NCBI GenBank assembly: GCA_017631635.1 | Contig: JAGBSX010000028.1 | Span: 1-59,885, forward strand | DNA: 59,885 bases | Direction: 5' to 3' | Origin: Clostridia bacterium | Lineage (GTDB): Bacteria > Bacillota > Clostridia > Christensenellales > RUG350 | In this document: one piece after another, positions 1 to 58,263 of the stretch | How positions within the stretch are numbered: the first letter of the stretch is position 1 | Layout: each line of letters starts with the position of its first letter | The notes under the pieces: model-generated | Database searches by the model: none | What the model saw: the letters and a program-made list of their open reading frames with translations, nothing else | Told to the model about the DNA's origin: nothing | Program-made: the position numbers and the translations under genes

Positions 1-85
1 ACGTACTACGAGCAAGTTTAGATAATTTAAGCAATTCTTTAAGCGGATACTTATGCCTTAGTTCAGAGATTATCTTGGCTTTTTG
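1..85 (-). CDS. IS3-family transposase OrfB, N-terminal fragment (-1 frame relative to orfA)
   Basis: -1 frame QKAKIISELRHKYPLKELLKLSKLARST; candidate slippery CAAAAAG at 79-85 just before the orfA stop. Confidence 0.75.
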
Positions 86-462
86 CCGTTCTCTCGCTCT
101 TCCGCAAGTACTAAGGCACTCAGTTTTTTTAAGTATTCAATCTCCATCCTAAGTCTTTGGTTTTCCGCTATTAAATCTTCTTCCACCTTTTTTTCTAACT
201 TAGGTGGTCTTCCACGTTTCTTTCCTGTTAGACTAGGTCTACCACGATTATCTTTCATCAACCCTTCATATCCTTCTTCTAGATATTTGCGTTCCCACTC
301 TATTACCTGACGTAGATGATTGCTGGTTTCAGATTCATTTGTAGTGTTCCAATACTTTCTAACAGCCTCTCTATAGCCTAAGTGGTTTTCTCGCATATCT
401 AGTATAACTGATAATTTGAATTCTGGCGAGTATTTTTTAAACTTTTGTCCTTTTTTTGCCAC
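70..462 (-). CDS. IS3-family transposase OrfA (HTH)
   Basis: KYSPEFKLSVI...W..KY...G..GL...RGRP...L..EN..LRME.EYLKKL pattern; AGGAGG SD before the GTG start. Confidence 0.9.
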   Translation of the reverse strand: MAKKGQKFKKYSPEFKLSVILDMRENHLGYREAVRKYWNTTNESETSNHLRQVIEWERKYLEEGYEGLMKDNRGRPSLTGKKRGRPPKLEKKVEEDLIAENQRLRMEIEYLKKLSALVLAEERENGKKPR

Positions 463-483
463 AAAAAATGCACCTCCTTAAAG

Positions 484-508
484 TGTCTAACTTTTGGGGT
501 GCATTTCA
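484..508 (-). repeat. Left terminal inverted repeat of the IS3-family element
   Basis: TGAAATGCACCCCAAAAGTTAGACA upstream of orfA; partner IR lies outside the window. Confidence 0.75.
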
Positions 509-592
509 GCTAGGTATGGTGTGTTTTTATTTTAATTATCCTAATGCTGTCGACTATGTGGCATAAGATATAGTTGTCCCAATGGCATAGGG

Positions 593-1573
593 TTAGGAGA
601 AGATTTGGGACTCTATGAGGTCTATTAGTTCTTTTGCCTCGTTGTCGTGTAGGGAGGTCTCTAGGGCTCGGCGTATGGCATTGAGGTCAAATGGCTGGAG
701 GGTGAGGGCGTCCTCGACGATTTGCGAAATGCTTGCGTCTAGTGCGTCGGTGTAGAACTGGACACTAGTCATCACTCTATCCACTACGTTGAGATGGCAC
801 GTCACGTTGCCAAAGGATAATAGCCCCTCAAAACTCACGTTAAATGGTATCTGGCTACCGTACACGAACTCGTGAGAGGAGTAATACTCGGCTAGTCTCG
901 TCACCTCGCCTTCATCAAATTCGCCTATGGCAGTAGGGGTGAGTGAGTACTCCTCTGCAAATGCCGATATGAGATAATCTCGCATATCCTCGATGGTCAA
1001 GTCTGGCGCGAACTCCGTGAGGTTGATGACTCTAGAGCGAACGGACTTGATGCCTTTGGTCTCTAGTTTTGCCTTGGGGGGAGTGAGGTATCTAGAGAGT
1101 TTATGAAGGTCTGCATTTATCAATATCGTGCCGTGGTGGTAGGAGCGTCCCTTGTGATTGTAAAAAGCATTGCCCGAAAACTTCCTGCCATCTAGTAGTA
1201 TATCGTTGCGACCAGATAGGGTGGTGGATAGTCCTGCCTTTTGGCAAGCAGATTGGATAATAGCCATATTTTTGCCAAGGTCGTAGTTTGGGGTAGTGGA
1301 GATAAAGGTGAAGTTGAGGTTGCCTACGTCGTGGTATACTGCTCCACCTCCACTTAGTCGTCTAGCCAACTTGCCACCCTCTTCGTCTAGTAGTTGGGTG
1401 CGACACTCTAGATAGGCGTTTTGGTTTTTGCCGATAACGACGGTATTTGCATTTTGCCACAGATACAATATCGCACTCTCGTCGTCTGCCATATCAAAAA
1501 GAACCTTCTCTTTGGCAAGGTTGACGTGGGGGTCAAGGGTATTCTCTACGTAAAACAAGATTTTGTTAACCAT
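593..1573 (-). CDS. lplA: Lipoate-protein ligase A
   Basis: LWQN..TVVIGKNQN, RRLSGGGAVYHD.GNLNFTF, RND...GRKFSGNA, HHGT, KGIKSVRSRV motifs. Confidence 0.95.
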   Translation of the reverse strand: MVNKILFYVENTLDPHVNLAKEKVLFDMADDESAILYLWQNANTVVIGKNQNAYLECRTQLLDEEGGKLARRLSGGGAVYHDVGNLNFTFISTTPNYDLGKNMAIIQSACQKAGLSTTLSGRNDILLDGRKFSGNAFYNHKGRSYHHGTILINADLHKLSRYLTPPKAKLETKGIKSVRSRVINLTEFAPDLTIEDMRDYLISAFAEEYSLTPTAIGEFDEGEVTRLAEYYSSHEFVYGSQIPFNVSFEGLLSFGNVTCHLNVVDRVMTSVQFYTDALDASISQIVEDALTLQPFDLNAIRRALETSLHDNEAKELIDLIESQIFS

Positions 1574-1613
1574 AAATTACCTTAAATTACCTTTTTTTTG
1601 ATATTATATCCTA

Positions 1614-1642
1614 ATTATATTAAAAAAAATGATAAAAGTCAA
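1614..1642 (-). promoter_or_regulatory. SigA-type promoter of lplA
   Basis: Minus strand TTGACT (1642-1637), 17 bp, TATAAT (1619-1614). Confidence 0.7.
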
Positions 1643-1693
1643 TAGACAAAGTGTTAAATATATGATATAATCGTGTTATAAAATGTTAAAAAC
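1643..1693 (+). promoter_or_regulatory. SigA-type promoter of the DeoR gene with candidate operator repeats
   Basis: TAGACA 1643-48, 17 bp, TG-extended TATAAT 1666-71; TGTTATAAAA-TGTTAAAAAC at 1674-1693. Confidence 0.65.
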
Positions 1694-1718
1694 TTAACCG
1701 TTTGAAACAGGAGGGATT

Positions 1719-2468
1719 ATGAACCGTATCAGACAAGAGCATATAAAAGATTATGTAGAGAGCAAAAATATAGCGACTATCAAGGAACTCCAAGAACTAT
1801 TTCCCGACGTGTCGCTGATGACTCTACATAGAGATCTAAACGTGCTCGAAGAAATGGGTGTCATCACCAAATATAGAGGTGGAGTGCGTTCGGTACGCCA
1901 ACCAAACGAGGCAGAATTTAACATACGTCTCAAAGAAAATAACGCAGGCAAAATATCTATGATGAAGAAGGCTATGCACCTACTACATCCACAGGCCTCG
2001 ATATTCTTGGATGCTAGTACGACCAATCTAATATTGGCTCGCAATTTGCCTGATATAGGGCTAAATATCACTACAAATAGCCCAAATATAGCGCTAGAAC
2101 TATGTCGTCTCAAGAATTCTACCGTCAATCTATGTGGTGGTACTATGAACCCTAGGACCTTGTCGGTATCTGGACCTCATACTCTATCAGTTTTGGAAAA
2201 TATCAATATAGACCTAGCCTTTATAGGAGTGTCTGGTTGCACAGCCTTGGCAGGATTTACCTGTGGTACTGAGGCTGATATGATGATCAAGGGACTAGTC
2301 ATCAAAAAGGCGCGTACTAGCGTAGTGCTATGTGCTGCAGACAAGTTTAGACGTCTCATGCCTTTCACTTTCGCAGGGCTATCAGACGTGGACTACGTGA
2401 TTAGCGACGGTACTCTGCCCAAAGATTTCGTAGATAAGTGCGTAGAGTCTGGTGTCAAAATACTGTAA
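1719..2468 (+). CDS. DeoR/GlpR family transcriptional regulator
   Basis: N-terminal wHTH (VSLMTLHRDL..LE..G), IFLDASTT, TNS, DLAFIG..G sensor domain. Confidence 0.95.
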   Translation: MNRIRQEHIKDYVESKNIATIKELQELFPDVSLMTLHRDLNVLEEMGVITKYRGGVRSVRQPNEAEFNIRLKENNAGKISMMKKAMHLLHPQASIFLDASTTNLILARNLPDIGLNITTNSPNIALELCRLKNSTVNLCGGTMNPRTLSVSGPHTLSVLENINIDLAFIGVSGCTALAGFTCGTEADMMIKGLVIKKARTSVVLCAADKFRRLMPFTFAGLSDVDYVISDGTLPKDFVDKCVESGVKIL

Positions 2469-2506
2469 AATACAAAAAAATAAAGCATACTCATAACAAA
2501 ATTTGG

Positions 2507-2546
2507 TTGACAACAATGTTATAAAATGTTATGATATGTTAAAAAT
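2507..2546 (+). promoter_or_regulatory. SigA promoter of the E2-E3-E1 operon overlapped by three 10-bp-phased TGTTA repeats
   Basis: TTGACA 2507-12, 17 bp, TATGAT 2530-35; TGTTATAAAA/TGTTATGATA/TGTTAAAAAT at 2517, 2527, 2537. Confidence 0.7.
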
Positions 2547-2578
2547 AGCAAAAACACAATATAAAAGGAGGATTTGTT

Positions 2579-3811
2579 TTGGCAAATGCTGTAATTATGC
2601 CCAAAGCCGGTATCACCGTAGAGAGTTGCATTATCGGTACTTGGGAGAAGAAAGTTGGTGACGTGGTTAAAGTAGGAGACGTGTTGTTCTCATACGAGAC
2701 AGACAAGGCTAGTTTTGAATGTGAATCTACTGCAGAGGGTACTTTGCTCGAGGTTTTCTTCAACGAGGGAGACGAAGTCCCTTGCCTAGTCAACGTGTGC
2801 GCTATAGGTAATCCTGGTGAGGATTGCTCTGCGCTACGCCCAGATTCGGCTGCTCCTCAAGAGGATAAGCCTGCTGAGAAGGTAGAGAAGGTAGAGGTAG
2901 CGCCTATCGCTACTACTGCTGTCGCAGGAGACAAGACTGCAGTCTCTCCTAGAGCCAAGAAACTCGCTGAGCGCGCAGGCGTAGATGCATCACTCGCTAC
3001 ACCTACCGGTCCAAATGGTAGAGTAATCGAGCGTGACGTGAGAGCACTCATGGACAACCCTGTAGTGGCTAATGCACCAGTAGCACCAGTCGCTGCTCCT
3101 GCTCCAGTAGCAGAAGAAGAGTACAAGGACGTGAAGTTTAGCGGTATTCGTCGTGCTATCAGCAAGTCAATGCATACCTCTCTATCTACTATACCTCAAC
3201 TCACTCATACCATATCCTTTGACGCTAGCACTATACTAGCATATCGCAAGATGCTCAAGGGAGCAGAGGGAGAGTATGCAGGTATTACCCTAGGAGATAT
3301 GGTGCTATACGCAGTATCTAGAACCTTGCTAAATCACCCTGATCTCAATGCTACTATGCTAGACGACAACAATATCCGTCTATACAAGCACGTCAACCTA
3401 GGAGTGGCAGTAGATACCCCTAGAGGTCTAATGGTACCTACTATATTCCGTGCAGACGAGATGAGTCTACTAGAGATATCCAAGGCTGTCAAGAAACTCG
3501 CTGCCGAGTGTCGAGAGGGCAATATCAGTCCTGACAAACTATCTGGTGGTACTTTCACCGTATCCAACCTAGGTAGCATGGGAGTAGAGTCCTTCACCCC
3601 AGTCATCAATCCTCCTCAGACAGGTATACTAGGAGTATGCTGTACTACCGAGAGAGTCAAGAAGGGCGCTGATGGTTCTATATCTGTATATCCTGCTATG
3701 GCTCTAAGTTTGACTTATGACCACCGTGCAGTAGACGGTTCTCCTGCCGCTCGTTTCCAAAAGGAACTAGCGCAAAATCTAGAGAACTTCACAGCACTAC
3801 TTGCAAAATAA
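2579..3811 (+). CDS. Dihydrolipoamide acyltransferase (E2) of a 2-oxoacid/acetoin dehydrogenase-type complex
   Basis: Lipoyl domain ETDKA, E3-binding SPRAKKLA...TGPNGRV, catalytic DHRAVDG; TTG start with GGAGG SD. Confidence 0.95.
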   Translation: MANAVIMPKAGITVESCIIGTWEKKVGDVVKVGDVLFSYETDKASFECESTAEGTLLEVFFNEGDEVPCLVNVCAIGNPGEDCSALRPDSAAPQEDKPAEKVEKVEVAPIATTAVAGDKTAVSPRAKKLAERAGVDASLATPTGPNGRVIERDVRALMDNPVVANAPVAPVAAPAPVAEEEYKDVKFSGIRRAISKSMHTSLSTIPQLTHTISFDASTILAYRKMLKGAEGEYAGITLGDMVLYAVSRTLLNHPDLNATMLDDNNIRLYKHVNLGVAVDTPRGLMVPTIFRADEMSLLEISKAVKKLAAECREGNISPDKLSGGTFTVSNLGSMGVESFTPVINPPQTGILGVCCTTERVKKGADGSISVYPAMALSLTYDHRAVDGSPAARFQKELAQNLENFTALLAK

Positions 3812-3821
3812 GAGGTAAACT

Positions 3822-5189
3822 ATGGAAATATTTGATTTGATAGTAATCGGCGGAGGTCCAGGTGGATATCTCTGCGCCGAGCGTGCCGCCCAAGGTGGTA
3901 TGAAAGTAGCCCTATTTGAGAAGAAATCTCTAGGTGGTACTTGCCTAAACGAAGGCTGTATCCCTACCAAGACTCTACTCAATTCTTCAAAGATGTATAG
4001 ACACGCCAAAGAGAGTGAGGCTTTTGGAGTCACCGTGACTGGCGTTAGTTATAATCACGAGAAGGTCGTAGAGAGAAAGAACGGAGTAGTCAAGACTCTA
4101 GTCGCAGGCGTAGGCGCTACTATGAAAGGTAATAAGGTCACCGTCATCAGCGCAAATGCAGTCATCAAAGGCAAGACGGACAATGGTTTTGCAGTAGAGG
4201 CTGACGGTGTAGTATACGAGGCCAAGAGACTCACTATCGCATCTGGCTCGGAGACCGTAGTCCCACCAGTACCTGGTCTCAAAGAGGGACTAGCATCTGG
4301 ATTCGTATTGACAAATAGAGAAGTACTAGACGAAAAGACTCTACCCAAGACCTTGGTCGTAATAGGTGGAGGAGTTATAGGTCTAGAGATGGCTTATTAC
4401 TTCGCTAGCGTAGGCGTCGAAGTGACAGTTATCGAGATGATGCCTAAGATAGCAGGTGCTACTGATCCTGATATCTGCAAGGTGCTCCAAGATGCATTTG
4501 TCAAGCGTGGTATGACCTTCAAACTCTCATGCAAAGTGCTAGAGGTCAAAGAGGGTAGCGTAGTATACGAAGAGAACGGCGAGAAGAAAGAGATAGCATG
4601 CGACAAGGTACTACTATCTGCAGGTCGTAAGCCTTCTACTGCTGGTATTGGCGTAGAAAATCTACAACTGAATATGGACAGGGCTGCTATCAAGACTGAT
4701 AGACATATGTGCACCAACGTATCTGGCGTATACGCAGTAGGCGATTGTAATGGCAAGTTGATGCTAGCACATACTGCATATAGAGAGGCAGAGGTAGCAG
4801 TTAATCATATGCTAGGCAAGGTGGACGAGATGCGTTATGACGTGATACCATCTGTCATCTACACCGACCCAGAGGTGGCTAGCGTAGGCTACAGCAAAGA
4901 AGGCGCAGAAAGTAAGGGTATGAAAGTCAAAGAAATCAAATTGCCTATGTCCTATGCAGGTCGCTACCTAGCAGAGAACGACGGTGGCAAAGGTTTCATC
5001 AAACTAGTAGTAGACACCGACAAAAATCGTCTAGTAGGATGCCATATGGTAGGCTCATACGCTTCTGAGATAATAATGACTGCTACTATGATGATAGACA
5101 CCGAACTCACACCTAATCGTCTAAAGAAACTCGTATTCCCACACCCTACTGTGGCAGAGATAATACGAGAGGCTATCTTTCATATTTAA
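3822..5189 (+). CDS. lpdA: Dihydrolipoyl dehydrogenase (E3)
   Basis: GGGPGGY, GGTCLNEGCIPTK redox disulfide, GGGVIGLE, FPHPTVAE. Confidence 0.95.
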   Translation: MEIFDLIVIGGGPGGYLCAERAAQGGMKVALFEKKSLGGTCLNEGCIPTKTLLNSSKMYRHAKESEAFGVTVTGVSYNHEKVVERKNGVVKTLVAGVGATMKGNKVTVISANAVIKGKTDNGFAVEADGVVYEAKRLTIASGSETVVPPVPGLKEGLASGFVLTNREVLDEKTLPKTLVVIGGGVIGLEMAYYFASVGVEVTVIEMMPKIAGATDPDICKVLQDAFVKRGMTFKLSCKVLEVKEGSVVYEENGEKKEIACDKVLLSAGRKPSTAGIGVENLQLNMDRAAIKTDRHMCTNVSGVYAVGDCNGKLMLAHTAYREAEVAVNHMLGKVDEMRYDVIPSVIYTDPEVASVGYSKEGAESKGMKVKEIKLPMSYAGRYLAENDGGKGFIKLVVDTDKNRLVGCHMVGSYASEIIMTATMMIDTELTPNRLKKLVFPHPTVAEIIREAIFHI

Positions 5190-5215
5190 TAAATTATATA
5201 AGGAGAATAAATAAA

Positions 5216-7681
5216 ATGCCAAAGAGTTTATTTGTAGACCCACAAGAGACTTTAGCTCCTGGTCAGATTACTTTTGACAGTATTCCAGTCAATCAATACA
5301 ACAAAACGATACAAGAAGAGAGAAGTCGTTATAGTGACGACGATCTAGTGCGTATCTATCGTGATATCGCTATACTCCGTGAGTTTGAGTCTATGCTCAA
5401 CCAAATCAAGACCCAAGGTGTATACAACGGTATAGAGACTACTTATCCTGGTCCTGCCCACCTATCCATAGGTCAAGAGGCAGCAGCAGTAGGTCAAGCA
5501 TACCTACTAGACCAAAATGACTTCTCATTTGGTTCTCACCGTAGCCACTCCGAGATACTAGCCAAGGCTCTATCTTGTATTCACAAACTTAGCGAACAAG
5601 AATTAATGACTATAATGGAGGGCTTCCTAGGTGGCTCGGCTCTACGTGCTACCGAGAAGATAGGACCTGTCAGCGACGTCAAAGAACTAGCCATTAGATT
5701 TATCCTATACGGTACGTTGTCCGAGATATTTGCTCGTGACACCGGATTCCACAAGGGTATGGGTGGCTCAATGCACGCATTCTTCCTACCATTTGGTATA
5801 TATCCAAACAACGCTATCGTTGGTGGCTCTGCTGCTATCGCTACCGGTGCTGCTCTATTTAAGAAAATCAACAATAAGCAAGGTATCGTAGTGTGCAACT
5901 CCGGTGACGGTTCTATGGCTCGTGGTCCTGTATGGGAGGCTATGAACTTCGCTGCTATGGATCAATTCAATACCCTATGGGAGTCTCATAAGGGTGGTAT
6001 GCCTATACTATACAACGTATTCAACAACTCATACGGTATGGGAGACCAGACTCGTGGTGAGACTATGGGATACGATATGCTAGCACGTATCGGCTCTGGT
6101 GTCAGCCCTACTCAATTCCACGCAGAACGTATCAACGGATTTAACCCTCTCGCAGTTATCGACGCTATGGAGAGAAAACTCAAGATACTTCGCAACGAGG
6201 GAGGCCCTGTACTTCTCGATACTCTTACTTATCGTTTCTCTGGTCACTCTACTTCGGACCAAAACGCATATCGTACCAAGGAAGAGATAGAGGCATGGCG
6301 TAATATAGACCCAATCATCACTTACCGTCAAGGTCTAGTTGATGCAGGTGTCGTAGCAGATAGCAAACTAGAGGAGATACTAGCAGATACTATCGAGCGT
6401 ATGACTACTATCTGCAAGGCTGCATCAAATCCAGAGATCAGTCCATACGTTGACTTCCGCAAAGATCCTCAAGTAGTAGAGCGTTTGATGTTCTCCAACC
6501 AAAAGGTTGACAAACTAGACGATCGTGAGCCAGAGGTAAATATGCCTCTAGCAGAAGTACCTGCTTACAAGAAACTCAAGGAGAAAGAGCGTAGCCCTAT
6601 CGTAAACGGCAAGCCTGTATCCAAGATGAAACTATTTAACCTACGTGACGCATTGTCAGAGGTTATCTACGACAGATTCTACGAAGATCCTACACTAGTA
6701 GCGTATGGTGAGGATTGTCGTGACTGGGGTGGCGCATTTGCAGTATACCGTGGTATGATGGATGCGTTCCCACACTCTAGACTATTTAACTCTCCTATCG
6801 CAGAGGCTGCTATCGTAGGTACTGCAGTAGGATACGCAGTATCTGGTGGCCGTGCTCTAGTCGAACTAATGTATGCTGACTTTATCGGTTGCGCAGGTGA
6901 CGAGATATTTAACCAAATGTCCAAGTGGCAAGCAATGAGCGCAGGTATACTCAAGATGCCTGTGGTACTACGTGTATCAGTAGGATCAAAGTACGGCGCT
7001 CAACATAGCCAAGACTGGACTGCTCTATGCGCTCATATCCCTGGACTCAAGGTATGTTTCCCTGCTACCCCTTGGGAGGCAAAAGGTCTAATGGAGTCTG
7101 CACTCAGAGGTACTGACCCAGTAGTATTCTTTGAGAGCCAGAGAATATACGACGTAGGTGAGCAATTCCACGAGGGTGGCGTACCTGCAGAGCGTTATGA
7201 GATAGAATTTGGCGATACCAACAAGGTAAGAGACGGTAAGGACGTCACCATACTCACTATCGGTGCTGCTCTATATCGTGCCGTTGACGCTGCTAAACAA
7301 CTATCCGAGAAGTACGGTGTAGAGGCTGATATCATCAACATACACTCTCTAGTACCATTGGATTACACCAAGATAATCGAATCCGTCAAGAAGACTGGCA
7401 GAGTAGTACTAGTATCTGATGCTTGCGCTAGAGGTTCATTTATGAGTGACGTAGCCAAGAATATCACCGAACTATGCTTTGATGATCTAGATGCACCTCC
7501 AGTAGTAGTAGGCGCTCGCAACTGGATAACTCCTCCATACGAGTTTGACGAGTTCTTCTTCCCACAAGCATCATGGATAATAGACGCTATCTCCGAGAAA
7601 CTCGTGCCACTACCAGGACACGTAGTAAAAGATGGTTGTACGGAGGCAGAGGCTATTCGCCGTGCTAAACAAGGCGTATAA
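5216..7681 (+). CDS. Fused E1 alpha/beta ThDP-dependent dehydrogenase (acetoin/2-oxoacid dehydrogenase family)
   Basis: HLSIGQEA, HRSH, GMGGSMH, GDG...NN, YRFSGHS (alpha); GED, NSPIAE, GAQHSQ, DPVVFFE, LDAPP (beta). Confidence 0.9.
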   Translation: MPKSLFVDPQETLAPGQITFDSIPVNQYNKTIQEERSRYSDDDLVRIYRDIAILREFESMLNQIKTQGVYNGIETTYPGPAHLSIGQEAAAVGQAYLLDQNDFSFGSHRSHSEILAKALSCIHKLSEQELMTIMEGFLGGSALRATEKIGPVSDVKELAIRFILYGTLSEIFARDTGFHKGMGGSMHAFFLPFGIYPNNAIVGGSAAIATGAALFKKINNKQGIVVCNSGDGSMARGPVWEAMNFAAMDQFNTLWESHKGGMPILYNVFNNSYGMGDQTRGETMGYDMLARIGSGVSPTQFHAERINGFNPLAVIDAMERKLKILRNEGGPVLLDTLTYRFSGHSTSDQNAYRTKEEIEAWRNIDPIITYRQGLVDAGVVADSKLEEILADTIERMTTICKAASNPEISPYVDFRKDPQVVERLMFSNQKVDKLDDREPEVNMPLAEVPAYKKLKEKERSPIVNGKPVSKMKLFNLRDALSEVIYDRFYEDPTLVAYGEDCRDWGGAFAVYRGMMDAFPHSRLFNSPIAEAAIVGTAVGYAVSGGRALVELMYADFIGCAGDEIFNQMSKWQAMSAGILKMPVVLRVSVGSKYGAQHSQDWTALCAHIPGLKVCFPATPWEAKGLMESALRGTDPVVFFESQRIYDVGEQFHEGGVPAERYEIEFGDTNKVRDGKDVTILTIGAALYRAVDAAKQLSEKYGVEADIINIHSLVPLDYTKIIESVKKTGRVVLVSDACARGSFMSDVAKNITELCFDDLDAPPVVVGARNWITPPYEFDEFFFPQASWIIDAISEKLVPLPGHVVKDGCTEAEAIRRAKQGV

Positions 7682-7682
7682 T

Positions 7683-8309
7683 ATGTCGCTCCTAAAACTC
7701 ACACGCACGGCAAATGCCGGCGTCTTGATGGAGATAGATGGCGTGAGTATACTCCTAGACGGAGTGTGCGAACAGTTGCCCCCTTATCTAGGGACTCCTG
7801 CACCTATTCGCGAGAAACTCCTAGAGAATATGCCCGACGTAGTGGCATTTACTCACAAGCATCCTGACCATTATGACGAAGACTATGCTAAATCATATGA
7901 GGATAAGACTCTCAGGTCCGTATACGGGCCTGAGAGCTTGCCTTTTTTGGAGGTAGGTGGAGTAGAGATATCTGCACATAAGACTCGTCATATCGGCAAG
8001 ACTGATATACCTCACGTGAGTTTCGTCATCAAGGGTAGTGCTACGGTATGGTTCGTAGGAGATGCCTCCCCCCTCTCGCTAAAGAGTATGGTAGGAGCAA
8101 GCAAGCCTGATTTGTTGATAGTGCCATTTGCCTATCTAATCACTCCTAGTGCTTGGCGTATGACCAAAGAGATAGGAGCGAAAAAGATATTGCTACTACA
8201 TATGCCACCTAGAGATAGAGATGTCGAGAGGTTATGGGATATGGTAGAGGCTACCGTAGAGAGTGATATACTCTATCACATAGATATAGGAGAAAGTATT
8301 GGTCTTTGA
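7683..8309 (+). CDS. MBL-fold metallo-hydrolase
   Basis: THKHPDH (HxHxDH) motif, GD, later His; ATG 1 nt after the E1 stop. Confidence 0.75.
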   Translation: MSLLKLTRTANAGVLMEIDGVSILLDGVCEQLPPYLGTPAPIREKLLENMPDVVAFTHKHPDHYDEDYAKSYEDKTLRSVYGPESLPFLEVGGVEISAHKTRHIGKTDIPHVSFVIKGSATVWFVGDASPLSLKSMVGASKPDLLIVPFAYLITPSAWRMTKEIGAKKILLLHMPPRDRDVERLWDMVEATVESDILYHIDIGESIGL

Positions 8310-8335
8310 ATCAATAGTTTCGAAAGTAAAGTATA

Positions 8336-8372
8336 AAAAAAGCATTTCAACTTATTCGTTGAAATGCTTTTT
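8336..8372. terminator. Bidirectional intrinsic terminator
   Basis: AAAAAGCATTTCAAC-ttattc-GTTGAAATGCTTTTT between convergent genes. Confidence 0.85.
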
Positions 8373-8399
8373 GTTTTGTAGATTATTGTTCTCTAGTGA

Positions 8400-9662
8400 T
8401 TAGATTTGCTTTGCATTGGCTAGTAGATATTTCTCAGCCTCTGCGCACCATAGTCCGTTGTTCTTCTCTACGATTAGAGCAAGTTCGCGATATAGTGGGT
8501 CGGTCTCGCCTAGTTTGGCTAGGTCTGCTAGAGCGACTAGTGGCATAGAGATGAAGTTGTAGATGAGTTTCTTGCCACCAGGTATCTTGTCTAGGTTGAT
8601 GACGGTATCTACTACTGCATCTAGTCCACCTACGTGGGTAATCATAGCAGTAGGATTGAGTCTGCCGTCGCTCATCATATCGATAGCCTCTATCATATCG
8701 TCGGTATTGCCACCAGAGTTGCCACATACGTGGGTGAAACTATAGTGAACGTTGTAGAAGTTGAACATAGCAGAGAAAGCAGGATTGGTAGGACCTGCGA
8801 AGAAGTTGAGACATCCGTCAAATCCTAGCACGCTATCAGCGAGTTCTACGACAGGCTTGACTGGTGCATATACGAATGCATCATCATAACCCTTGCCATC
8901 TGTGAGGCTCATTAGATACTCACGAGCATCTTCTACTGCGTTGGTGTTGACATATACTAGTTTGACACCGTTCTTGGCGGCCTCTTCGACTGTGATGATA
9001 GATGCTGCTCTATCTAGACGAGCATTGTCTATGTCGGTGACTACTAGCAATGCAGGCTTTCTATCACAATGGATAGCATAGTCGATAGCGCCTAGTCCCA
9101 TAGGACCAGCGGCTGCCATAAGTATAGCATTACCACCCTCTACTATACCCATAGTGTGTAGGTGAGTAGAGTTGTTGGTGTGGTAGTTGGTGTGGTATCC
9201 ACCTATGATGCAAGATACTGGCTCAGCCAAAGAACCGTAGAAATATGCGTCGTTGTGGTATGGTAGTAGGCAGTTGCACTCCATTACCTCGTTTGGTATA
9301 ACTACGTATTGAGAGTTGCCACCTATAAATCTATAGGAATATCCTGGAGCGTCAAGTTTGCCTTGATAGCCGATAGCAGGTTGGATAGCGAACTTGTCGC
9401 CAGCCTTAAATTTGCTCTGCCACTTCTCGCCGACTGCGATTATCTCGCCACAAAATTCGTGACCTATGATAGTAGGATTTTCGGCGATATCATTTGGGAC
9501 ACGAGCGTGAGCAGAACCTTGGAGTGCAGCCTTGTGAGAGGACATACATACGCTATCGGATATTACTTTGGCGAGTATCTCGTCTTCTCTCATCTCGGGC
9601 AATTCAAACTCTTCTAGACGTAGGTCGTTAGCACCGTATATGCGAACAGCTTTAGTTTTCAT
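8400..9662 (-). CDS. Zn-binding medium-chain dehydrogenase, L-sorbose-1-phosphate reductase (SorE)-like
   Basis: KTKAVRIYG..DLRLEEFELP, DSVCMS, IIGHEFCG, AEPVSC, GPMGLGAIDYA, GGKKLIY; 420 aa. Confidence 0.8.
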   Translation of the reverse strand: MKTKAVRIYGANDLRLEEFELPEMREDEILAKVISDSVCMSSHKAALQGSAHARVPNDIAENPTIIGHEFCGEIIAVGEKWQSKFKAGDKFAIQPAIGYQGKLDAPGYSYRFIGGNSQYVVIPNEVMECNCLLPYHNDAYFYGSLAEPVSCIIGGYHTNYHTNNSTHLHTMGIVEGGNAILMAAAGPMGLGAIDYAIHCDRKPALLVVTDIDNARLDRAASIITVEEAAKNGVKLVYVNTNAVEDAREYLMSLTDGKGYDDAFVYAPVKPVVELADSVLGFDGCLNFFAGPTNPAFSAMFNFYNVHYSFTHVCGNSGGNTDDMIEAIDMMSDGRLNPTAMITHVGGLDAVVDTVINLDKIPGGKKLIYNFISMPLVALADLAKLGETDPLYRELALIVEKNNGLWCAEAEKYLLANAKQI

Positions 9663-9730
9663 ATTTATCTCCTTGTTAAAAAAATTCGTATTCTATACAA
9701 AATACCAATAGTATCTAGTAATCTAAAGAT

Positions 9731-9759
9731 ATTATATTATAAAATCTAGTGAAAGTCAA
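9731..9759 (-). promoter_or_regulatory. SigA promoter of the SorE-like gene
   Basis: Minus strand TTGACT (9759-54), 17 bp, TATAAT (9736-31). Confidence 0.7.
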
Positions 9760-9832
9760 TATATAAATTTAATTTAATGCTGATAATTTAATCTTATATC
9801 CTAATCAAAGTGAATTTTGTTTGGGTAAAACA

Positions 9833-9861
9833 TTGATTTAGCCATATATTTGTGATATAAT
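9833..9861 (+). promoter_or_regulatory. SigA promoter of the MtlD-like gene
   Basis: TTGATT, 17 bp, TG-extended TATAAT. Confidence 0.65.
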
Positions 9862-9891
9862 ATCTTCGTAGTAGCAAAAGAAGGTGATTGT

Positions 9892-11082
9892 ATGAAAAAA
9901 GCGCTAATGTATGGAGCAGGTAATATAGGCCGTGGATTTATAGGTCAACTACTAGATATGTCTGATTATGCCATATCTTTTATCGACGTCAATATGGACG
10001 TGATAAATAGACTAAATGCCGACAAGCAATATCCTATATACATCACAGATGGAGACAGTTATCGTGAGTATATAGTGACTAACGTCAGCGGTGTCAATGG
10101 CAGAGACAACGAGGCTATAGCAGAGGCTATCAGCGAGGCAGACTTGATGGCTACGGCTGTGGGCGTGAATATACTCAAATTTATCGCAGAGCCATTTGCA
10201 GGGGGCGTACGCCGTAGGATGCAGAAGGGTATAGATGCTCCTCTCAACGTAATAATATGCGAAAATATGATAGAGGCAGACAAGTATTTCGCAGGATTAG
10301 TCAAGGGATATTTGACAGAGCAAGAGGCTGAGTACTTTGACTCTCATATAGGTCTAGTCGAGCCATCTATCGGTAGAATGGTCCCTGCTACCCCCAAGGA
10401 GATAGCAGACAAAAATCCTCTCGCAGTATGCGTAGAGCCATATTGCGAATTGCCTGTGGACAAAGATGCCTTCAAGGGAGAAATCCCTGCTATCAAGAAT
10501 ATGGTACCATTTGCTCCGTTTAGTTTTTATATCAGGCGCAAGTTGTTTATGCACAATATGAGCCACGCGCTCACGGCGTATTTTGGTGCGCTCCGAGGAT
10601 ATACCTATATTTGGGAGGCTATCCAAGATAGAGATATCAAGAAGTTGGCTAGAGAGGCTTTGAGAGAATCATCTCAGGCTCTCAAGGGGGAGTACGGAGT
10701 GTCTATGCAAGAACTAGAAGACTTCTCGACCAATTTGATAGAGAGATTTGAGAATAAACTGCTAGGAGATACTATCGAGAGAGTGGGCAAAGATACCAAG
10801 AGAAAACTATCTCTCAACGATAGATTTGTAGGAGTGGCGCTACTTTGCCAAAAGCAAGGCACTCTACCCAAGCATATACTCGCAGGACTAGCGGCAGGAC
10901 TCCACTTCGCCAAAGAGGGTGACGAGGCATCTGTCGAGGTGGCTACCTTCGCTCGTGAGTGTGGAGTGGGAGAGGCGCTTGAGAAGTATTGTGGTATATC
11001 CTCCACCTCCACCATAGCCCAAATAGTAGGCGAATATTATGACAAAATAAAGAATAACGTCGCCATATCTGATTTGATATAA
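9892..11082 (+). CDS. Mannitol-1-phosphate 5-dehydrogenase family protein (MtlD-like)
   Basis: YGAGNIGRGFIG, ATAVG, IICEN, RKLF.HN, RF.N..L.D...RVG....RKL..NDR. Confidence 0.85.
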   Translation: MKKALMYGAGNIGRGFIGQLLDMSDYAISFIDVNMDVINRLNADKQYPIYITDGDSYREYIVTNVSGVNGRDNEAIAEAISEADLMATAVGVNILKFIAEPFAGGVRRRMQKGIDAPLNVIICENMIEADKYFAGLVKGYLTEQEAEYFDSHIGLVEPSIGRMVPATPKEIADKNPLAVCVEPYCELPVDKDAFKGEIPAIKNMVPFAPFSFYIRRKLFMHNMSHALTAYFGALRGYTYIWEAIQDRDIKKLAREALRESSQALKGEYGVSMQELEDFSTNLIERFENKLLGDTIERVGKDTKRKLSLNDRFVGVALLCQKQGTLPKHILAGLAAGLHFAKEGDEASVEVATFARECGVGEALEKYCGISSTSTIAQIVGEYYDKIKNNVAISDLI

Positions 11083-11086
11083 AATA

Positions 11087-11115
11087 AGCACGCTGCAAGT
11101 TATCAGCGTGCTTTT
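11087..11115 (+). terminator. Intrinsic terminator after the MtlD-like gene
   Basis: AAGCACGCTG-loop-CAGCGTGCTTTT. Confidence 0.75.
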
Positions 11116-11162
11116 ATAATGTTAGGAAGTGATACGCATTAGATACGATATCTAATTGCATC

Positions 11163-11193
11163 AAAAAACCTGAAATGAGATTTTCAGGTTTTT
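11163..11193 (-). terminator. Intrinsic terminator of the DMT transporter gene
   Basis: AAAAACCTGAAA-loop-TTTCAGGTTTTT. Confidence 0.7.
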
Positions 11194-11206
11194 AATTTTC
11201 ATTTTA

Positions 11207-12176
11207 TTATGCTCCAAATAGGGTGGAGACGGTGTCGGGGGTGAGCATACCTATCACGATTATGGAGATGAGTTCTATAATCAAGCCGACGAAGTTGCGA
11301 AGAGTTAGTTTTTCCTTAAATACTATCCAACCTATCAGCGTGGTGATGAATATAGATATTGCGCTAGAGATAGGGAATAATAGTATAGAGTCTACGGATT
11401 TGCTCATCTCAGTCACTAGGAGATTGATGACAAATAGTGCAAACGCTAGCGCTAGTCCACAGATAAGTAGCACCTTGCTCAAGCCAAATGCGACAGGCTT
11501 GTAATCGTCGCTAGGGGCTATGGCAGGGGTTTTCTTTTTTGCGTAGGTATATAAATAGCAAGCAACCTAGCATAATCAAACAGTTGAATATGAAGGTGAG
11601 GAAAGAGTACATAGCAGAATTAGCACCTGCTCCCAGAGGAGAAAAGAGCGCGAAATATTTCTGCGCTACCATTATCAGACCTTCGCTAAGTAATTTGATA
11701 AATAGTAGTACGTAGGTGCGTAAGGATATGCGTTTGACGTCCGATTTTGTAGAAGGGGTGAGTAGGTATACTCCTAGCATAAAGAGGAATAGTCCTACTA
11801 TTTGAAATGCGCTGACGCCCTCTCCAAACCAAAAATAACTCACGCCACAAGATATCACTAGTCCACCTAGCCCAAACATAGTGGAGACTATGAGTGTGCA
11901 ACCCTTGATAGCCTCTATACCTGCATATAGACCGATACCAAATAGTACGGCGCTCACTAGTGAGGTGAGGATAGTATGCGCGTCTAGTCCGTGAAATCCT
12001 ACTACGGATAGGGTGACGAGTGAAAATAGTCCTGCTATTAGGTAATAGTAAGCGCTATATCTAAAGAAAGTGTCTCCACTCTTGATATCCATAGAGGAAG
12101 ACTTGCTACATACGTTTTGAATAACGCGCATGAGGGCTATAGCAAAAAAGCAAATCGCTATCACCAAAGGACTCAT
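11207..12176 (-). pseudogene. EamA/DMT family transporter split by a one-base frameshift
   Basis: Two hydrophobic ORFs (12176-11511 and 11482-11207) join into one DMT-like protein (FGEGVS...GL and FKEKLT...GL halves) if one A is removed from the run at 11535-11540. Confidence 0.7.
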
Positions 12177-12382
12177 AATTTTATCTCCCAAACAGGCTAA
12201 TTTTATCGTGCCTCGTTGCGACAATATTAGCACCTTGTATCCATTATATCAAGTATTAAAATAGAATTCTATTTTATTTTTTCAAGAGTGAAACTGAAGG
12301 AGGAGTTTTTAGGGGAGGTGGTTATTTATTTTTAGGTCTAAAAGGGTATTTTGTGGTAATAATCAGAAAAGTAGGAGAAATT

Positions 12383-13819
12383 ATGGATAGAAAAACTAGA
12401 GTAGAAATACTCTCTCAACTGCTAGGCAAATGCTTTGATATAGAGGTGAGAGATATAGAGGGAGAAAAAGGTACGATTACTCTCGTGTACGCAGACGTAA
12501 TAGTAGACAAAGATATACTCGCTAGAGACCTCGTCACACCTCTACAAGATATGTTGGACACTACCTCTCCTACCTTGGAGAAAGTAGTGGAGAGCATTCT
12601 CACGCCTGCGCGTATCACAGAGGCTCACGACCTCAAGGAGGCGTCTGTCAAGGTGGCAGACGGTAGTATCGCTATCATTACGGATAGTGGAGTATTGCTA
12701 ACAGTCCTCAAAAAAGTCGCTCATAGACCTGTGGGAGAGCCTCCTACTGGCACTTCGGTCAAAGGACCTAGAGAGGGATTTACCGAAGAATTAAGGGCAA
12801 ACGTGTCGTTACTGCGTAGAAAACTCAAGACCCCTATGCTCACACTAGAAAAACACGTGGTAGGCAAATATACTCGCACCGACGTAGTCATATGTTATCT
12901 ACGAGGTATAGCAGACGAAGAGATAATCGGCAAAGTCAGAGACAAGGTGGTAGGCATAGATATAGACGGGGTATTGGACGCATCTTATATATCGCATTAT
13001 CTAGAGGAAGAGCCAAATTCTATCTTTCGCCATACGGGTACTACCGAAAAGCCGGATATATTAGCAGGAAAATTGCTAGAAGGCAGAGTGGCTATACTAG
13101 TGGACGGCTCGCCTATAGCGCTCACGCTACCATTTTTGTTTATCGAAGATATGCAAGACGGCGACGACTATTACAAAAAGGATTATAGGATAACCTTTGA
13201 GAGAATAATTAGATTGATGGGAGCGACGATGGCTGTCATCATACCTGCTATATACGTAGCGTTGCAAGAATTTCAGTATCAATTCGTACCACTCAAATTT
13301 CTCATCACTCTGCTCAATGCCACTAGTGGTATACCTCTCACGCCAACTTTAGAAATGTTGACGGTACTGTTGCTATTTGAGGTGCTCAACGAGACTAGTG
13401 TGCGTATGCCCAAATACGTGGGTATGGCTATATCCGTAGTAGGTGCTATCGTGCTAGGAGATACAGCCGTCAATGCAGGACTACTGGGTAGTCCGGCAGT
13501 ACTAGTGACGGCGATATCTGGTATAGGATTGTATTGCGTGCCTGATGATGCAGGTACTTTTTCGCTATTGCGTCTAGTATACGTGTGCATAGCAGGTGTG
13601 ACGGGGATATTTGGACTGGTGCTAGGAGTGATGGTACTACTAGCGTATCTGGCTAAATCAAATTCGTATGGAGCACCGTATCTCGCGCCTTATGCTCCTA
13701 TAGTGAGAGAAGACCTCAAAGATGGAGTATTTTTCGCAGGACTAGACAAGATGAAATTTAGGCCCAAGTCCTTTCCTCATCACAATAGAGTGCGTATAGG
13801 TGAAGAAAATGATGAATAA
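12383..13819 (+). CDS. Spore germination receptor A subunit (GerKA-like)
   Basis: GPREGFTE, TEKPD...LLEGRVAILVDGSP.AL..P, R.P......S.VGAIVLG..AV.AG, YGAPYLAPYAP. Confidence 0.95.
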   Translation: MDRKTRVEILSQLLGKCFDIEVRDIEGEKGTITLVYADVIVDKDILARDLVTPLQDMLDTTSPTLEKVVESILTPARITEAHDLKEASVKVADGSIAIITDSGVLLTVLKKVAHRPVGEPPTGTSVKGPREGFTEELRANVSLLRRKLKTPMLTLEKHVVGKYTRTDVVICYLRGIADEEIIGKVRDKVVGIDIDGVLDASYISHYLEEEPNSIFRHTGTTEKPDILAGKLLEGRVAILVDGSPIALTLPFLFIEDMQDGDDYYKKDYRITFERIIRLMGATMAVIIPAIYVALQEFQYQFVPLKFLITLLNATSGIPLTPTLEMLTVLLLFEVLNETSVRMPKYVGMAISVVGAIVLGDTAVNAGLLGSPAVLVTAISGIGLYCVPDDAGTFSLLRLVYVCIAGVTGIFGLVLGVMVLLAYLAKSNSYGAPYLAPYAPIVREDLKDGVFFAGLDKMKFRPKSFPHHNRVRIGEENDE

Positions 13820-14864
13820 GCGTCAAATAGCATTACTATTACTCGTAATTATGCCTGTATACAAGGTGTCTACCTTGCCTAGTTATCTAGCGTCCGTAGC
13901 CGAAAACGATATGTGGTTGAGTATGCTCGTGGTACAGGGACTAGAGATATTCACCCTCATACCTATACTCCTAGTGGCTACGAGAGGTGGTCTCAAGAAT
14001 ATATTGCCCAAGTTTGTATACGTAGTGATAGCGTGTATCTGCGTGCTGTGGTGGACTCTACGCCTAGGTATGCTAAATACAGACGTGGTGCATTACGTAT
14101 CCAAGATACTATTTGAACACGACAAGAGACTACTCATCATATCTCTACTGATGCTAGGTAGTCTATACGTCGCGAGCCGTGGTGTGAGGAGTATAGGTCG
14201 TGTGGCTGAATTGACGATATATCCCTTTGCTTTGTTGGTGGTAGTATTCGTGATATTCAACAAAGGACAACCTGATTTTAGCGAGATATTGCCTATATGC
14301 GATAGAGGTGTGTCATCATTGACGGCAGGATTAAATCTAGGGGTGTGGTTTGGAGACTTTTTGCCACTTATGTTTTTGGACTTGAGAGGGGACGAATCAT
14401 CTTCGGCTAAGATATATATCTCTGTAATCGTGGCGACTGTACTAGAGGTGCTACTATGTATAGTATTCATAGCCACATACAAGTCGGTGGCATCTAGCAC
14501 GGATAGCGTATTGAGTAGGTTAATGAACCAAGTGATACTATCTAGCGAGGTAGGTAGGTTGGATTACGTAGGTATCATAGTGTGGATAATGGCTACTATA
14601 CTGTACGTATCGTATATATTGGCATTTGTCAAAAAGGCTGTTCAAGATTTCTCTAATTACAAGGTGGCTATGATAGTCATCTCTGCTATAAGCGTGGCTA
14701 TTGTCATCATCAACGAATACGTGTGGACTGCCGTGCACCAAGCATACGCTACTGCATTGTCTCTATGGTGGGTGGCTATAGTTATGCATTATATATTGCC
14801 TATATGTATGATGATAGTGGCATTGAGGAGGAAAAATGAATATACTCTCAAAACTCAAGTCTAA
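13809..14864 (+). CDS. Spore germination receptor B subunit (GerAB/ArcD family)
   Basis: Multi-TM protein; DMWLS, G...IGR..E, RLD motifs; lies between A and C subunits. Confidence 0.85.
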   Translation: MMNKRQIALLLLVIMPVYKVSTLPSYLASVAENDMWLSMLVVQGLEIFTLIPILLVATRGGLKNILPKFVYVVIACICVLWWTLRLGMLNTDVVHYVSKILFEHDKRLLIISLLMLGSLYVASRGVRSIGRVAELTIYPFALLVVVFVIFNKGQPDFSEILPICDRGVSSLTAGLNLGVWFGDFLPLMFLDLRGDESSSAKIYISVIVATVLEVLLCIVFIATYKSVASSTDSVLSRLMNQVILSSEVGRLDYVGIIVWIMATILYVSYILAFVKKAVQDFSNYKVAMIVISAISVAIVIINEYVWTAVHQAYATALSLWWVAIVMHYILPICMMIVALRRKNEYTLKTQV

Positions 14865-19766: not shown

Positions 19767-20035
19767 ACTGTGCTAATCGGGGAGTTAGTGGTGCCCTGTC
19801 GCCTGCAATCCACTATAGCAGGGAGTATCAGTCCTAATAGGCGTAGTTTATGGCAAGCAGCCTGTAGCAAGTGATGATGATGTCGGGGTCTTATGCAACG
19901 AGACGTCGTGAACCATGTCAGGACCTGACGGTAGCAGCATTAAGCGAATAGTAGCGTGTGCCATAGGGTAGCTTCGGCGGAGTAGGCTACTACAGTAGCG
20001 TTGCGGTAGGTTGCGTCAACCTAGGACGGCACAGT
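19767..20035 (+). ncRNA. ffs: Large bacterial signal recognition particle RNA (with Alu domain)
   Basis: ACTGTGC/GCACAGT terminal pairing; Alu-like GGGGAG...GGTGCCCTGT..CCTGCAATCC.CTATAGCAGGG; helix 8 TCAGGACCTGACGGTAGCAGC; 269 nt. Confidence 0.92.
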
Positions 20036-20832: not shown

Positions 20833-21002
20833 AATACACCTCGATATGGTTGATAGATATATATACCAAAGTACACCTAGGATAGCAACTATTAAAACTA
20901 TTATTTACTCAAAAAATATGGTCTTGATTTTATCACATTGTTGACATAACTCTAGAGATTGGTGTATAATCAAATATACTAGTATCGTATAGGAGGATAT
21001 TT

Positions 21003-21692: not shown

Positions 21693-21694
21693 AT

Positions 21695-57498: not shown

Positions 57499-57501
57499 AA
57501 T

Positions 57502-58242: not shown

Positions 58243-58263
58243 ATCCCACTACGGAGAAAGACT

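Follow-up and report, generated by a model that had tools for sequence, protein, structure and literature searches.

What does a lipoate-dependent dehydrogenase complex do in a gut clostridium, where it stands beside a sugar-type regulator and genes for polyol dehydrogenases? The question is raised by a contig of a Clostridia bacterium (Christensenellales; RUG350; assembly GCA_017631635.1, contig JAGBSX010000028.1), analysed here over its whole 59,885 nt and called the window. Close to one end of the window lie genes for a lipoate-protein ligase (lplA), a DeoR-type regulator, a dihydrolipoyl acyltransferase (E2), a dihydrolipoyl dehydrogenase (E3), a single-chain, thiamine diphosphate (ThDP)-dependent E1 and a metallo-β-lactamase-fold (MBL) hydrolase. 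We find that this system is an uncharacterised clade of lipoamide complexes that has already been flagged in print. The reading that we favour, with about even confidence, is that the complex catalyses the oxidative, acyl-CoA- and NADH-yielding step of a sugar-phosphate-responsive catabolic set centred on 6-deoxyhexoses, and is not an ordinary, constitutive pyruvate dehydrogenase (PDH).

In the model that we propose, lplA and the genes deoR-E2-E3-fused E1-MBL would make up a self-contained, horizontally mobile module. Its product would be a ThDP- and lipoamide-dependent dehydrogenase that acylates CoA and reduces NAD, lipoylated by its own LplA from scavenged lipoate and controlled by its own DeoR through TGTTA-N5-TGTTA operators, arranged in tandem and either overlapping the deoR and E2 promoters or following them. 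In anaerobic Firmicutes, the clade is genomically coupled to a 420-aa Zn-dependent dehydrogenase of the medium-chain dehydrogenase/reductase (MDR) superfamily, hereafter ADH-420 or ADH, to MtlD-like and sorbitol-6-phosphate-dehydrogenase-like enzymes, to PHP-domain or MBL hydrolases and to an L-fucose or L-rhamnose isomerase with its kinase.

Genes were identified from the listing of open reading frames (ORFs) together with Pfam and NCBIfam scans, and the nine ORFs that a first-pass annotation of the window had assigned to the block were all confirmed in place (Table 1). All the parts of a lipoamide E1-E2-E3 complex are there: a ThDP-dependent E1 with alpha and beta portions, a three-domain E2, an E3 and a lipoylation enzyme. 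Read directly from the sequence, E2 carries ETDKAS, which contains the lysine of the DKA motif, and DHRAVDG, and E1 carries the ThDP motif GDG...NN. In NCBIfam, the alpha and beta portions of E1 both fall under the curated PDH cut-offs (201.6 against 393.85 and 240.8 against 321), and E2 stays under every equivalog cut-off for PDH or 2-oxoglutarate dehydrogenase (best, 280 against 445). No acetoin dehydrogenase (Aco) E1 model matched the E1 in the same scan. The LplA appears to serve this complex alone, because the window's genome (1.32 Mb in total, completeness 94.8%) gave neither GcvH nor, by tblastn, LipA or LipB, and, besides this E1, nothing that matches E1_dh as strongly as an E1 would. 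The sole remaining E1_dh match there lies in a 688-aa frame on contig C33, scores 24.3 bits, just above the Pfam cut-off of 22, and is taken for a transketolase-type or deoxyxylulose-5-phosphate synthase (DXS)-type ThDP enzyme. lplA adjoins E2 in 35 of the 47 loci whose E1 is at least 86% identical to that of the window; in other lineages, LipB-LipA or LplA lies inside the complex operon.

How would such a complex be controlled? Promoter-like and terminator-like sites, taken together with the strands of the genes, indicate that the block is five transcription units and not one operon: lplA (-), deoR-E2-E3-E1-MBL (+), ADH (-), MtlD (+) and a membrane protein gene (-). The regulator combines the HTH_DeoR and DeoRC domains of the DeoR/GlpR family with tandem-repeat operators at the promoters it would regulate. 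A 15-nt word, TGTTATAAAATGTTA, is common to the deoR and E2 promoter regions, and the repeats at E2 give three copies of ATGTTA at 10-bp spacing. TGTTA-N5-TGTTA occurs three times in the genome, where base composition predicts about six, and all three occurrences are at the deoR and E2 promoters. Across related loci, the exact operator stands upstream of E2 in 23 of the 29 loci that carry deoR and in none of the 31 that lack it (2/31 when one mismatch is allowed); with at most one mismatch, it is also found upstream of deoR in 25 of those 29. DeoR and TGTTA-N5-TGTTA are thus a predicted regulator-operator pair that travels with the module. In distant loci, the DeoR genes next to ADH or E1 are 35–41% identical to that of the window. 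The usual signals of DeoR regulators are sugar phosphates; by analogy, this one would act as a repressor with a sugar phosphate as effector. A 12-mer, TTATATCCTAAT, common to the upstream regions of lplA/deoR, ADH/MtlD and the kinase gene, was read as a -10-like element and not used. Over positions 1–20500, no riboswitch or other Rfam family was found except the bacterial large signal recognition particle RNA (RF01854, 156 bits) at 19768–20034 (+).

The arrangement of the block exceeds chance, since the core order lplA(-)-(deoR)-E2-E3-E1-(MBL) recurs in most of 80 related loci, taken from species-representative genomes and compared by tblastn, and since the window's own family has the order ADH-E2-E3-E1-LplA(-MtlD). 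The fused-E1 clade is present in 82 of 401 genomes within the order and in 18 of 400 further genomes from a sample of the phylum, and metagenomes add thousands of proteins. Its history does not follow that of its hosts. The window's E1 is 90% identical to that of G048 and 91% to those of G209 and G243, genomes of one genus in another family, and only 64–65% identical to those of G002, G004 and G005 in its own family. For YchF the order is reversed (64% to G048, 70–71% to G002, G004 and G005). With such incongruent phylogenies, the module looks horizontally acquired. In the same-family loci (L137–L140, L101), a divergent DeoR gene precedes ADH-E2-E3-E1-LplA, and in one of them MtlD and a ROK kinase follow; we infer that ADH, MtlD and the complex were linked ancestrally in the window's family, and the complex genes of the window's genome look like a foreign replacement. 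The IS3-type fragment that flanks the module has a 97% identical copy on contig C32; the fragment may mark the edge of the insertion or simply an assembly break.

Some relatives carry more than one such complex. The complete genomes G009 and G049 (L090–L093) have two each, 57–58% and 51–53% identical to that of the window; the second copy lies by a xylulokinase, a GH32 gene and an ABC sugar transporter in G009 and by a SorC-type regulator in G049. GC-richer relatives show antisense open frames across E1 or ADH (L041, 9854–12433 (-); L064, 17400–18704 (-)), which are composition artefacts; they mislead the picking of genes by longest ORF and were replaced by hand in the locus annotations.

Which genes keep company with the complex? 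In the census of 401 genomes, the E1 clade was found in 82 and ADH-420 in 92; 68 genomes have both, 14 only E1, 24 only ADH (a class with at least one false negative, G003, whose E2 and E3 lie at a contig end) and 295 neither. The two lie on one contig, at most 20 kb apart, in 19 of the 68 genomes that carry both. ADH-420 is the most constant genomic partner of the complex. It is near E1 in 17 of 38 more distant loci, a count biased upward because 8 of the 38 were chosen for having ADH near E1. As to its function, the best NCBIfam match of ADH-420 is IolM (68.4 bits, cut-off 450), and its closest solved relatives are ketose reductase and sorbitol dehydrogenase, at 48–52 bits. The first-pass annotation had called it SorE-like, a label that its score against the galactitol-1-phosphate 5-dehydrogenase model, a ketose-/hexitol-phosphate MDR family, does not bear out (24.7 against a cut-off of 550, not significant); judged by its sequence, it is a polyol-dehydrogenase-like MDR enzyme and no more. 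We also considered ADH-420 as a replacement for FucO, which is unsupported: FucO scores above cut-off in 13 of 44 E1-carrying genomes and in 15 of 32 genomes with FucI and without E1, and shows no complementarity with the complex. Genome G178 has two ADH-420 paralogues, one at a distance of 3.6 kb from FucI, its counterpart at 3.2 kb from RhaA (contigs C16 and C19). The MtlD-like protein of the window scores just under the equivalog cut-off for mannitol-1-phosphate 5-dehydrogenase (best, 325.9 against 356; NF002652), and homologues of it adjoin ADH or E1 in L001, L050, L057, L101, L110, L120 and L128.

The clade forms same-strand arrays with DeoR, sorbitol-6-phosphate-dehydrogenase-like or MtlD-like dehydrogenases, FGGY or PfkB kinases and FucI or RhaA. 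L098 reads GatZ-like-FucI-FGGY kinase-DeoR-E2-E3-E1-ADH-SDR-PHP, with FucI at 1055 against 775 and the short-chain dehydrogenase/reductase (SDR) at 321 against 307 for sorbitol-6-phosphate dehydrogenase; L121 reads DeoR-aldolase-like-SDR-PHP-ADH-E2-E3-E1-LplA. Aldolase-SDR fusions take part in L119 and L124, and the pattern is repeated in L123. Outside the order, L125–L127 have ADH-LipB-LipA-E2-E3-E1-DeoR-RhaA (RhaA, 668 against 572). Besides L098 and L125–L127, FucI or RhaA is linked to the complex within 20 kb in G009, G049, G058, G068, G079 and G095. Among the first 201 genomes of the census, FucI or RhaA is present in 39 of 45 with E1 and 57 of 156 without it, and in 47 of 51 with ADH-420 and 49 of 150 without it; these counts are descriptive because related genomes are not independent. 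In the window, no rhaA, fucI or kinase gene for them lies within 12 kb of the complex; the genome has FucI on contig C52 (1011 against 775) and a rhamnulokinase-like kinase on contig C8. Contig C52 also carries, at 1–8000 (L136), a PocR/AraC regulator followed by an FGGY kinase, an AGE-type isomerase that is weakly sulfoquinovose-isomerase-like, a class II fructose-bisphosphate (FBP)-aldolase-like gene and a second MtlD-like gene, 48% identical to that of the window; this is a further, uncharacterised sugar cluster that employs an MtlD paralogue. E1 homologues thus do show a conserved linkage to sugar genes, in their co-occurrence with ADH-420 and in shared operons. This, together with the published rhamnose cluster of Caldicellulosiruptor, supports the sugar link drawn by the first-pass annotation, with the amendment that the recurrent context is the 6-deoxyhexoses L-fucose and L-rhamnose and not hexitols in general.

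That annotation had known of no characterised example; in the parts of PMC4187192 and PMC8579813 that treat rhamnose, the sugar link is already made for Caldicellulosiruptor, and these parts contain no assay. According to PMC4187192, expression of the cluster Csac_0865–0876 rises strongly on rhamnose and its presence goes along with growth on this sugar, and what the remaining genes do "remains unclear"; its rhamnose-cluster section does not name the dehydrogenase genes. Csac_0874–0872 appear as putative E1, E2 and E3, without enzymatic evidence, in the relevant entry of PMC3561251. For C. bescii, the operon listing of PMC8579813 gives Athe_0702-704-rhaR2-rhaA as one operon and describes Athe_0702-704 as a "predicted dehydrogenase in rhamnose utilization" whose closest characterised relatives are AcoC, AcoL and AcoB; the same source proposes a "novel three-subunit dehydrogenase", homologous to acetoin dehydrogenase, for the final, lactaldehyde step. 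As these sources describe them, Athe_0702-0704 and Csac_0872-0874 share with the window the order E2-E3-single E1 and a DeoR-family regulator (rhaR2) alongside, and the loci of genus g300 (L125–L127), with an E1 62–64% identical to that of the window, match the published operon order; the likeness is one of gene order and of the g300 loci, not a direct comparison with the named proteins. The window differs in having LplA in place of LipB/LipA and MBL in place of PHP, in lacking an adjacent rhaA or fucI (its FucI is on another contig) and in its host, a mesophilic gut bacterium without pyruvate:ferredoxin oxidoreductase (PFOR).

Two better-known kinds of complex resemble it in part. Like the window's complex, AcoABCL joins a ThDP-dependent E1, a lipoyl E2 and an E3 to form acyl-CoA and NADH, and it occurs in strict anaerobes that rely otherwise on PFOR, where a lipoylation gene and a diol dehydrogenase often go with it; the window differs in its single fused 821-aa E1, its DeoR-type regulator and its sugar-phosphate gene partners. 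Gram-positive PdhABCD with LplA and pyruvate formate-lyase (PFL) shares the types of component, the lipoate auxotrophy and the presence of PFL in a genome without PFOR. It is set apart by the sub-cut-off PDH scores, the fused E1, the order E2-E3-E1, the local DeoR operator, the probable horizontal acquisition of the window's module and, in the rhamnose section of the Caldicellulosiruptor source, the reported induction of the relatives' cluster by rhamnose (PMC4187192). The complex operons also touch the RhaEW route. In the portion of PMC3870299 on this pathway, RhaEW is validated as aldolase plus lactaldehyde dehydrogenase, and lactate dehydrogenase genes belong to some RhaR regulons. RhaEW-like aldolase-SDR fusions or free SDRs occur in complex operons (fused in L057, L119 and L124, split in L121), though the fusions score under the cut-off (287 against 567.75). 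Lactaldehyde would pass by this route to lactate and then to pyruvate, which the complex could finish. The RhaEW-type aldolase and SDR are both missing from the window's genome.

What might the hydrolase add? In the MBL protein, whose true start is suggested by homologues to lie near 7690, the metal ligands (HxHxDH, H, D, H) are invariant in 33 homologues, and the binuclear-metal motif is intact. Its structure model (pLDDT 95.7) found only generic hydrolases in a fold search (uncharacterised proteins, isothiocyanate hydrolase, NAPE-PLD, YhfI, UlaG, PhnP), and a sequence search of solved structures gave no match. MBL follows E1 in 37 of 61 loci and lies within 12 kb of it only where E1 is at least 74% identical to that of the window; PHP is near more distant E1s, in 12 of 38 loci plus L121. 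The two are never found together within 12 kb of E1, which suggests that they fill the same hydrolytic step. For the 420-aa PHP partner, an Atlas look-up gave only "PHP domain protein". The window holds a PHP-domain protein of its own, of 229 aa, which scores 26.2 bits, at the cut-off, and has no tblastn homology to that partner; its gene and that of an AEC-family transporter are divergent from a D-lyxose isomerase gene (-, 305 bits), at 20146–22663, so that the window has here another small sugar unit with a PHP hydrolase.

Near-identical DNA is present in animal-gut metagenome runs from several studies, and in two studies RNA libraries gave contigs that match deoR, E2, E3, E1, MBL and ADH at 0–4 mismatches. 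Such libraries can contain DNA, and with carry-over possible these matches are a weak hint that the module is transcribed. The MtlD stretch 9924–11200 is uncovered in these contigs, from which we draw no conclusion.

Several observations weigh against the deoxyhexose reading. TGTTA-N5-TGTTA is lacking at the ADH/MtlD, FucI and kinase promoters, even with two mismatches, so that one regulon joining the complex to these genes is unsupported in the window's genome. FucI and RhaA are also frequent in genomes without E1, and the genomes, being related, do not count as independent samples. ADH and MtlD adjoin the complex in only one (L001) of the 47 loci with an E1 at least 86% identical; both are adjacent also in L050, whose E1 is partial. 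NagB follows E1 or MBL in 13 of these 47 loci, and a NagB cluster occurs in 19 loci overall. A set of triosephosphate isomerase (TIM)-like, SIS, YjbQ, fructose-6-phosphate aldolase (FSA) and ribulokinase genes lies near the complex in about 10 loci. Such varied neighbours fit a common downstream node, for instance pyruvate. In C. saccharolyticus, rhamnose is converted to 1,2-propanediol, acetate, H2 and CO2 at 1:1:1:1, as the rhamnose section of PMC4187192 reports, which, under those conditions, leaves an additional oxidative step with no evident flux. Our literature searches returned only the Caldicellulosiruptor papers and no assay of such a complex. Finally, a nifJ-type PFOR was not found in the window's genome (G000) or in G002–G005, all of which carry the complex. 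As for the NagB-type gene itself, a glucosamine-6-phosphate deaminase (TIGR00502, 268–269 bits against 236.9), it lies directly downstream of E1 or MBL on the same strand in L004, L013 (after a gap of 27 bp), L079 and 16 further loci.

The last of these points leads to the explanation that comes nearest to ours. If the complex were a plain PDH of central metabolism, PFL and a lipoate-scavenging PDH would have replaced a lost nifJ-type PFOR, much as in a lactic acid bacterium; DeoR would tie expression to glycolytic flux, and the neighbouring dehydrogenases would be bystanders or NADH sinks. The substrates of nearly all E1/E2/E3 complexes are 2-oxoacids, PDH models give the best matches in NCBIfam, E1 and E3 are strongly conserved across species (85–95% identity), and the E1 loop YRFSGHSTSDQNAYR fits YR-H-D-YR, which we take to be the loop motif of alpha2beta2 2-oxoacid E1s. 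G001, the one genome of the family that lacks the complex, has PFOR, as do the other 36 genomes tested, 17 of them with E1; PFL is present in G000 and G002–G005 and absent from G001. Because the PFOR and PFL/complex patterns mirror each other there, PFOR is replaced in the window's family by PFL plus the complex, as a PDH would allow, and since both are present where PFOR is lacking, pyruvate is still to be counted as a strong candidate substrate. However, the evidence for this pattern comes from one family, which makes it one or two evolutionary events, and PFL could by itself account for the loss of PFOR; the window's genome also has a VorB-type oxidoreductase. Moreover, PFOR is present in 17 of 20 E1-carrying genomes tested, so that in most of them the complex is not the housekeeping pyruvate enzyme. 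A constitutive PDH also sits poorly with E1 and E2 scores below every PDH cut-off, with a patchy distribution, an incongruent phylogeny and a local regulator-operator pair, with operons shared with ADH-420, SDR and PHP in many lineages, and with homologous genes in a cluster reported as rhamnose-induced and in an operon with rhaA, in the sections cited above. On balance we regard a plain PDH as unlikely, albeit worth serious attention. The claim of the first-pass annotation, that this is no housekeeping PDH and is tied to sugar genes, therefore stands for the clade as a whole and only in part for the window's genome, where a PDH beside PFL is plausible.

Could the E1 instead split a ketose phosphate, much as transketolase or acetoin dehydrogenase split their substrates, an idea that sharpens the proposal of the first-pass annotation? 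Along such an aldolase-independent deoxyhexose route, ADH-420 would reduce L-fuculose-1-phosphate or L-rhamnulose-1-phosphate, an MtlD-like or sorbitol-6-phosphate-dehydrogenase-like enzyme would re-oxidise the product at its methyl end, shifting the carbonyl as in the L-sorbose pathway, and the resulting 1-deoxy-2-ketohexose 6-phosphate, an acetoin-like methyl ketone, would be split by the complex into acetyl-CoA, a tetrose 4-phosphate and NADH. Among the recurrent partners of the complex are three dehydrogenase families usually associated with hexitol or ketose phosphates, a DeoR regulator of the usual sugar-phosphate-sensing kind accompanies it, and the TIM-like, SIS and FSA genes could process the tetrose phosphate. 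The window's genome has FucI and the rhamnulokinase-like kinase and, at its 94.8% completeness, no match to class II aldolase (PF00596). In the small genomes, ADH, the complex, MtlD and a kinase make up the minimal set. The missing aldolase is no general trait of E1-carrying genomes, since PF00596 is present in 43 of 44 others, and several of the operons themselves contain aldolase domains; a class II FBP-aldolase-type gene elsewhere in the window's genome could replace FucA. The one 1,2-propanediol formed per rhamnose in C. saccharolyticus, in the rhamnose section of PMC4187192, needs the aldolase route, and the substrate is without precedent. Neither the ketose(-phosphate) cleavage nor the glycolyl-CoA product put forward by the first-pass annotation is borne out by the present data. 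We hold this cleavage to be improbable. Its fullest version, in which the complex is the C-C-cleaving end of an aldolase-independent 6-deoxyhexose pathway and not a 2-oxoacid dehydrogenase at all, with MBL or PHP acting on a phosphorylated product, is slightly more doubtful still; if true, it would be the first lipoamide complex to act on a sugar phosphate. Least probable of all, in our view, is a classical acetoin/2,3-butanediol system, with ADH-420 as butanediol dehydrogenase and the complex cleaving acetoin to acetyl-CoA and acetaldehyde, as reportedly occurs in Pelobacter carbinolicus and Clostridium magnum. In the window's family, as in other lineages, the complex operon begins with ADH; the solved proteins related to ADH-420 include (R,R)-butanediol dehydrogenase (38.5 bits); acetoin fermentation is redox-balanced in anaerobes; and among characterised proteins, the C. 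bescii homologues are listed closest to Aco proteins in the operon section of PMC8579813. But FucI/RhaA, the kinase, DeoR, the MtlD-like and sorbitol-6-phosphate-dehydrogenase-like enzymes and PHP have no place in such a system, ADH-420 tracks FucI/RhaA across genomes, and the annotated loci contain no sigma-54-type AcoR activator and no acoX, which we assume to be regular members of aco systems.

Within the deoxyhexose reading that we prefer, what would the complex oxidise? Pyruvate formed in the deoxyhexose pathway, for example by way of lactaldehyde and lactate, is a good candidate that stops somewhat short of an even chance. A C3 carbonyl that is not an acid (L-lactaldehyde, hydroxyacetone or methylglyoxal), attacked in the style of acetoin dehydrogenase, seems distinctly less likely, and a (1-deoxy)ketose phosphate is improbable; acetoin or some other compound takes what is left.

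Around the block, the membrane protein is a candidate member of the system at most; the first-pass annotation had called it a DMT (drug/metabolite transporter) protein, and its EamA match lies below the Pfam gathering score (Table 1). Directly after the block comes an unrelated spore germination receptor operon of the gerA/gerB/gerC type (12353–15954, +), because of which the organism is probably a spore former despite its genome of 1.3 Mb. An ORF of 1478 aa (32528–36964, +), between the genes for arginyl-tRNA synthetase and a GHMP kinase, matches no Pfam family at E 1e-6, and a type I restriction-modification system, HsdM, HsdS and HsdR (54786–59883, +), has a DUF4062 protein inserted between S and R.

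Table 1. Genes and predicted control sites of the block and its flank, with positions in the window
Feature	Position	Strand	Evidence or remark
IS3-family transposase, N-terminal fragment	70-462	-	Weak HTH_32 and IS3 N-terminal matches; contig end
lplA, lipoate-protein ligase (lipoate scavenging)	593-1573	-	TIGR00545, 325.1 against cut-off 280
deoR promoter-like site	1643-1671	+	Followed by operator candidate TGTTATAAAATGTTA at 1674-1688
DeoR/GlpR-family regulator	1719-2468	+	First gene of the operon; HTH_DeoR N-terminal, DeoRC sensor C-terminal
E2 promoter-like site	2507-2535	+	Two operator repeats, at 2517-2531 and 2527-2541, overlap it
E2, dihydrolipoyl acyltransferase	2579-3811	+	One lipoyl, one peripheral-subunit-binding and one catalytic domain
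E3, dihydrolipoyl dehydrogenase	3822-5189	+	TIGR01350, 480.4 against 408.8
Fused E1 alpha-beta, ThDP-dependent, 821 aa	5216-7681	+	E1_dh, Transket_pyr and Transketolase_C in a single chain
MBL-fold hydrolase	7632-8309 (ORF)	+	Lactamase_B_3; ORF overlaps the end of E1
Bidirectional terminator-like hairpin	8337-8372	.	Between MBL and convergent ADH; ends the deoR-MBL unit
Zn-dependent MDR dehydrogenase, 420 aa, polyol-dehydrogenase-like (ADH-420)	8400-9662	-	ADH_N and ADH_zinc_N
ADH promoter-like site	9759-9731	-	Sequence scan
MtlD promoter-like site	9833-9861	+	Sequence scan
MtlD-like long-chain polyol-phosphate dehydrogenase	9892-11082	+	Both Pfam domains; divergent from ADH
Membrane protein, family uncertain, possible half-size EamA	11511-12233	-	EamA 14 bits, E 0.065, cut-off 28.2

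The genes of the set, their regulator with its operator and the enzymes that may be their partners are now defined, the system is directly testable, and Caldicellulosiruptor is genetically tractable. NADH-forming lipoamide complexes are unexpected in strict anaerobes, and this clade is widespread. Should the substrate be pyruvate, the module would be part of a PFL-plus-PDH solution that stands in for PFOR in reduced Clostridia; with a non-acid carbonyl or a sugar phosphate as substrate, the complex would represent new enzymology. Its tie to fucose and rhamnose bears on how gut bacteria ferment the deoxysugars of mucin and pectin, and on whether these end as propanediol and propionate or as acetate.

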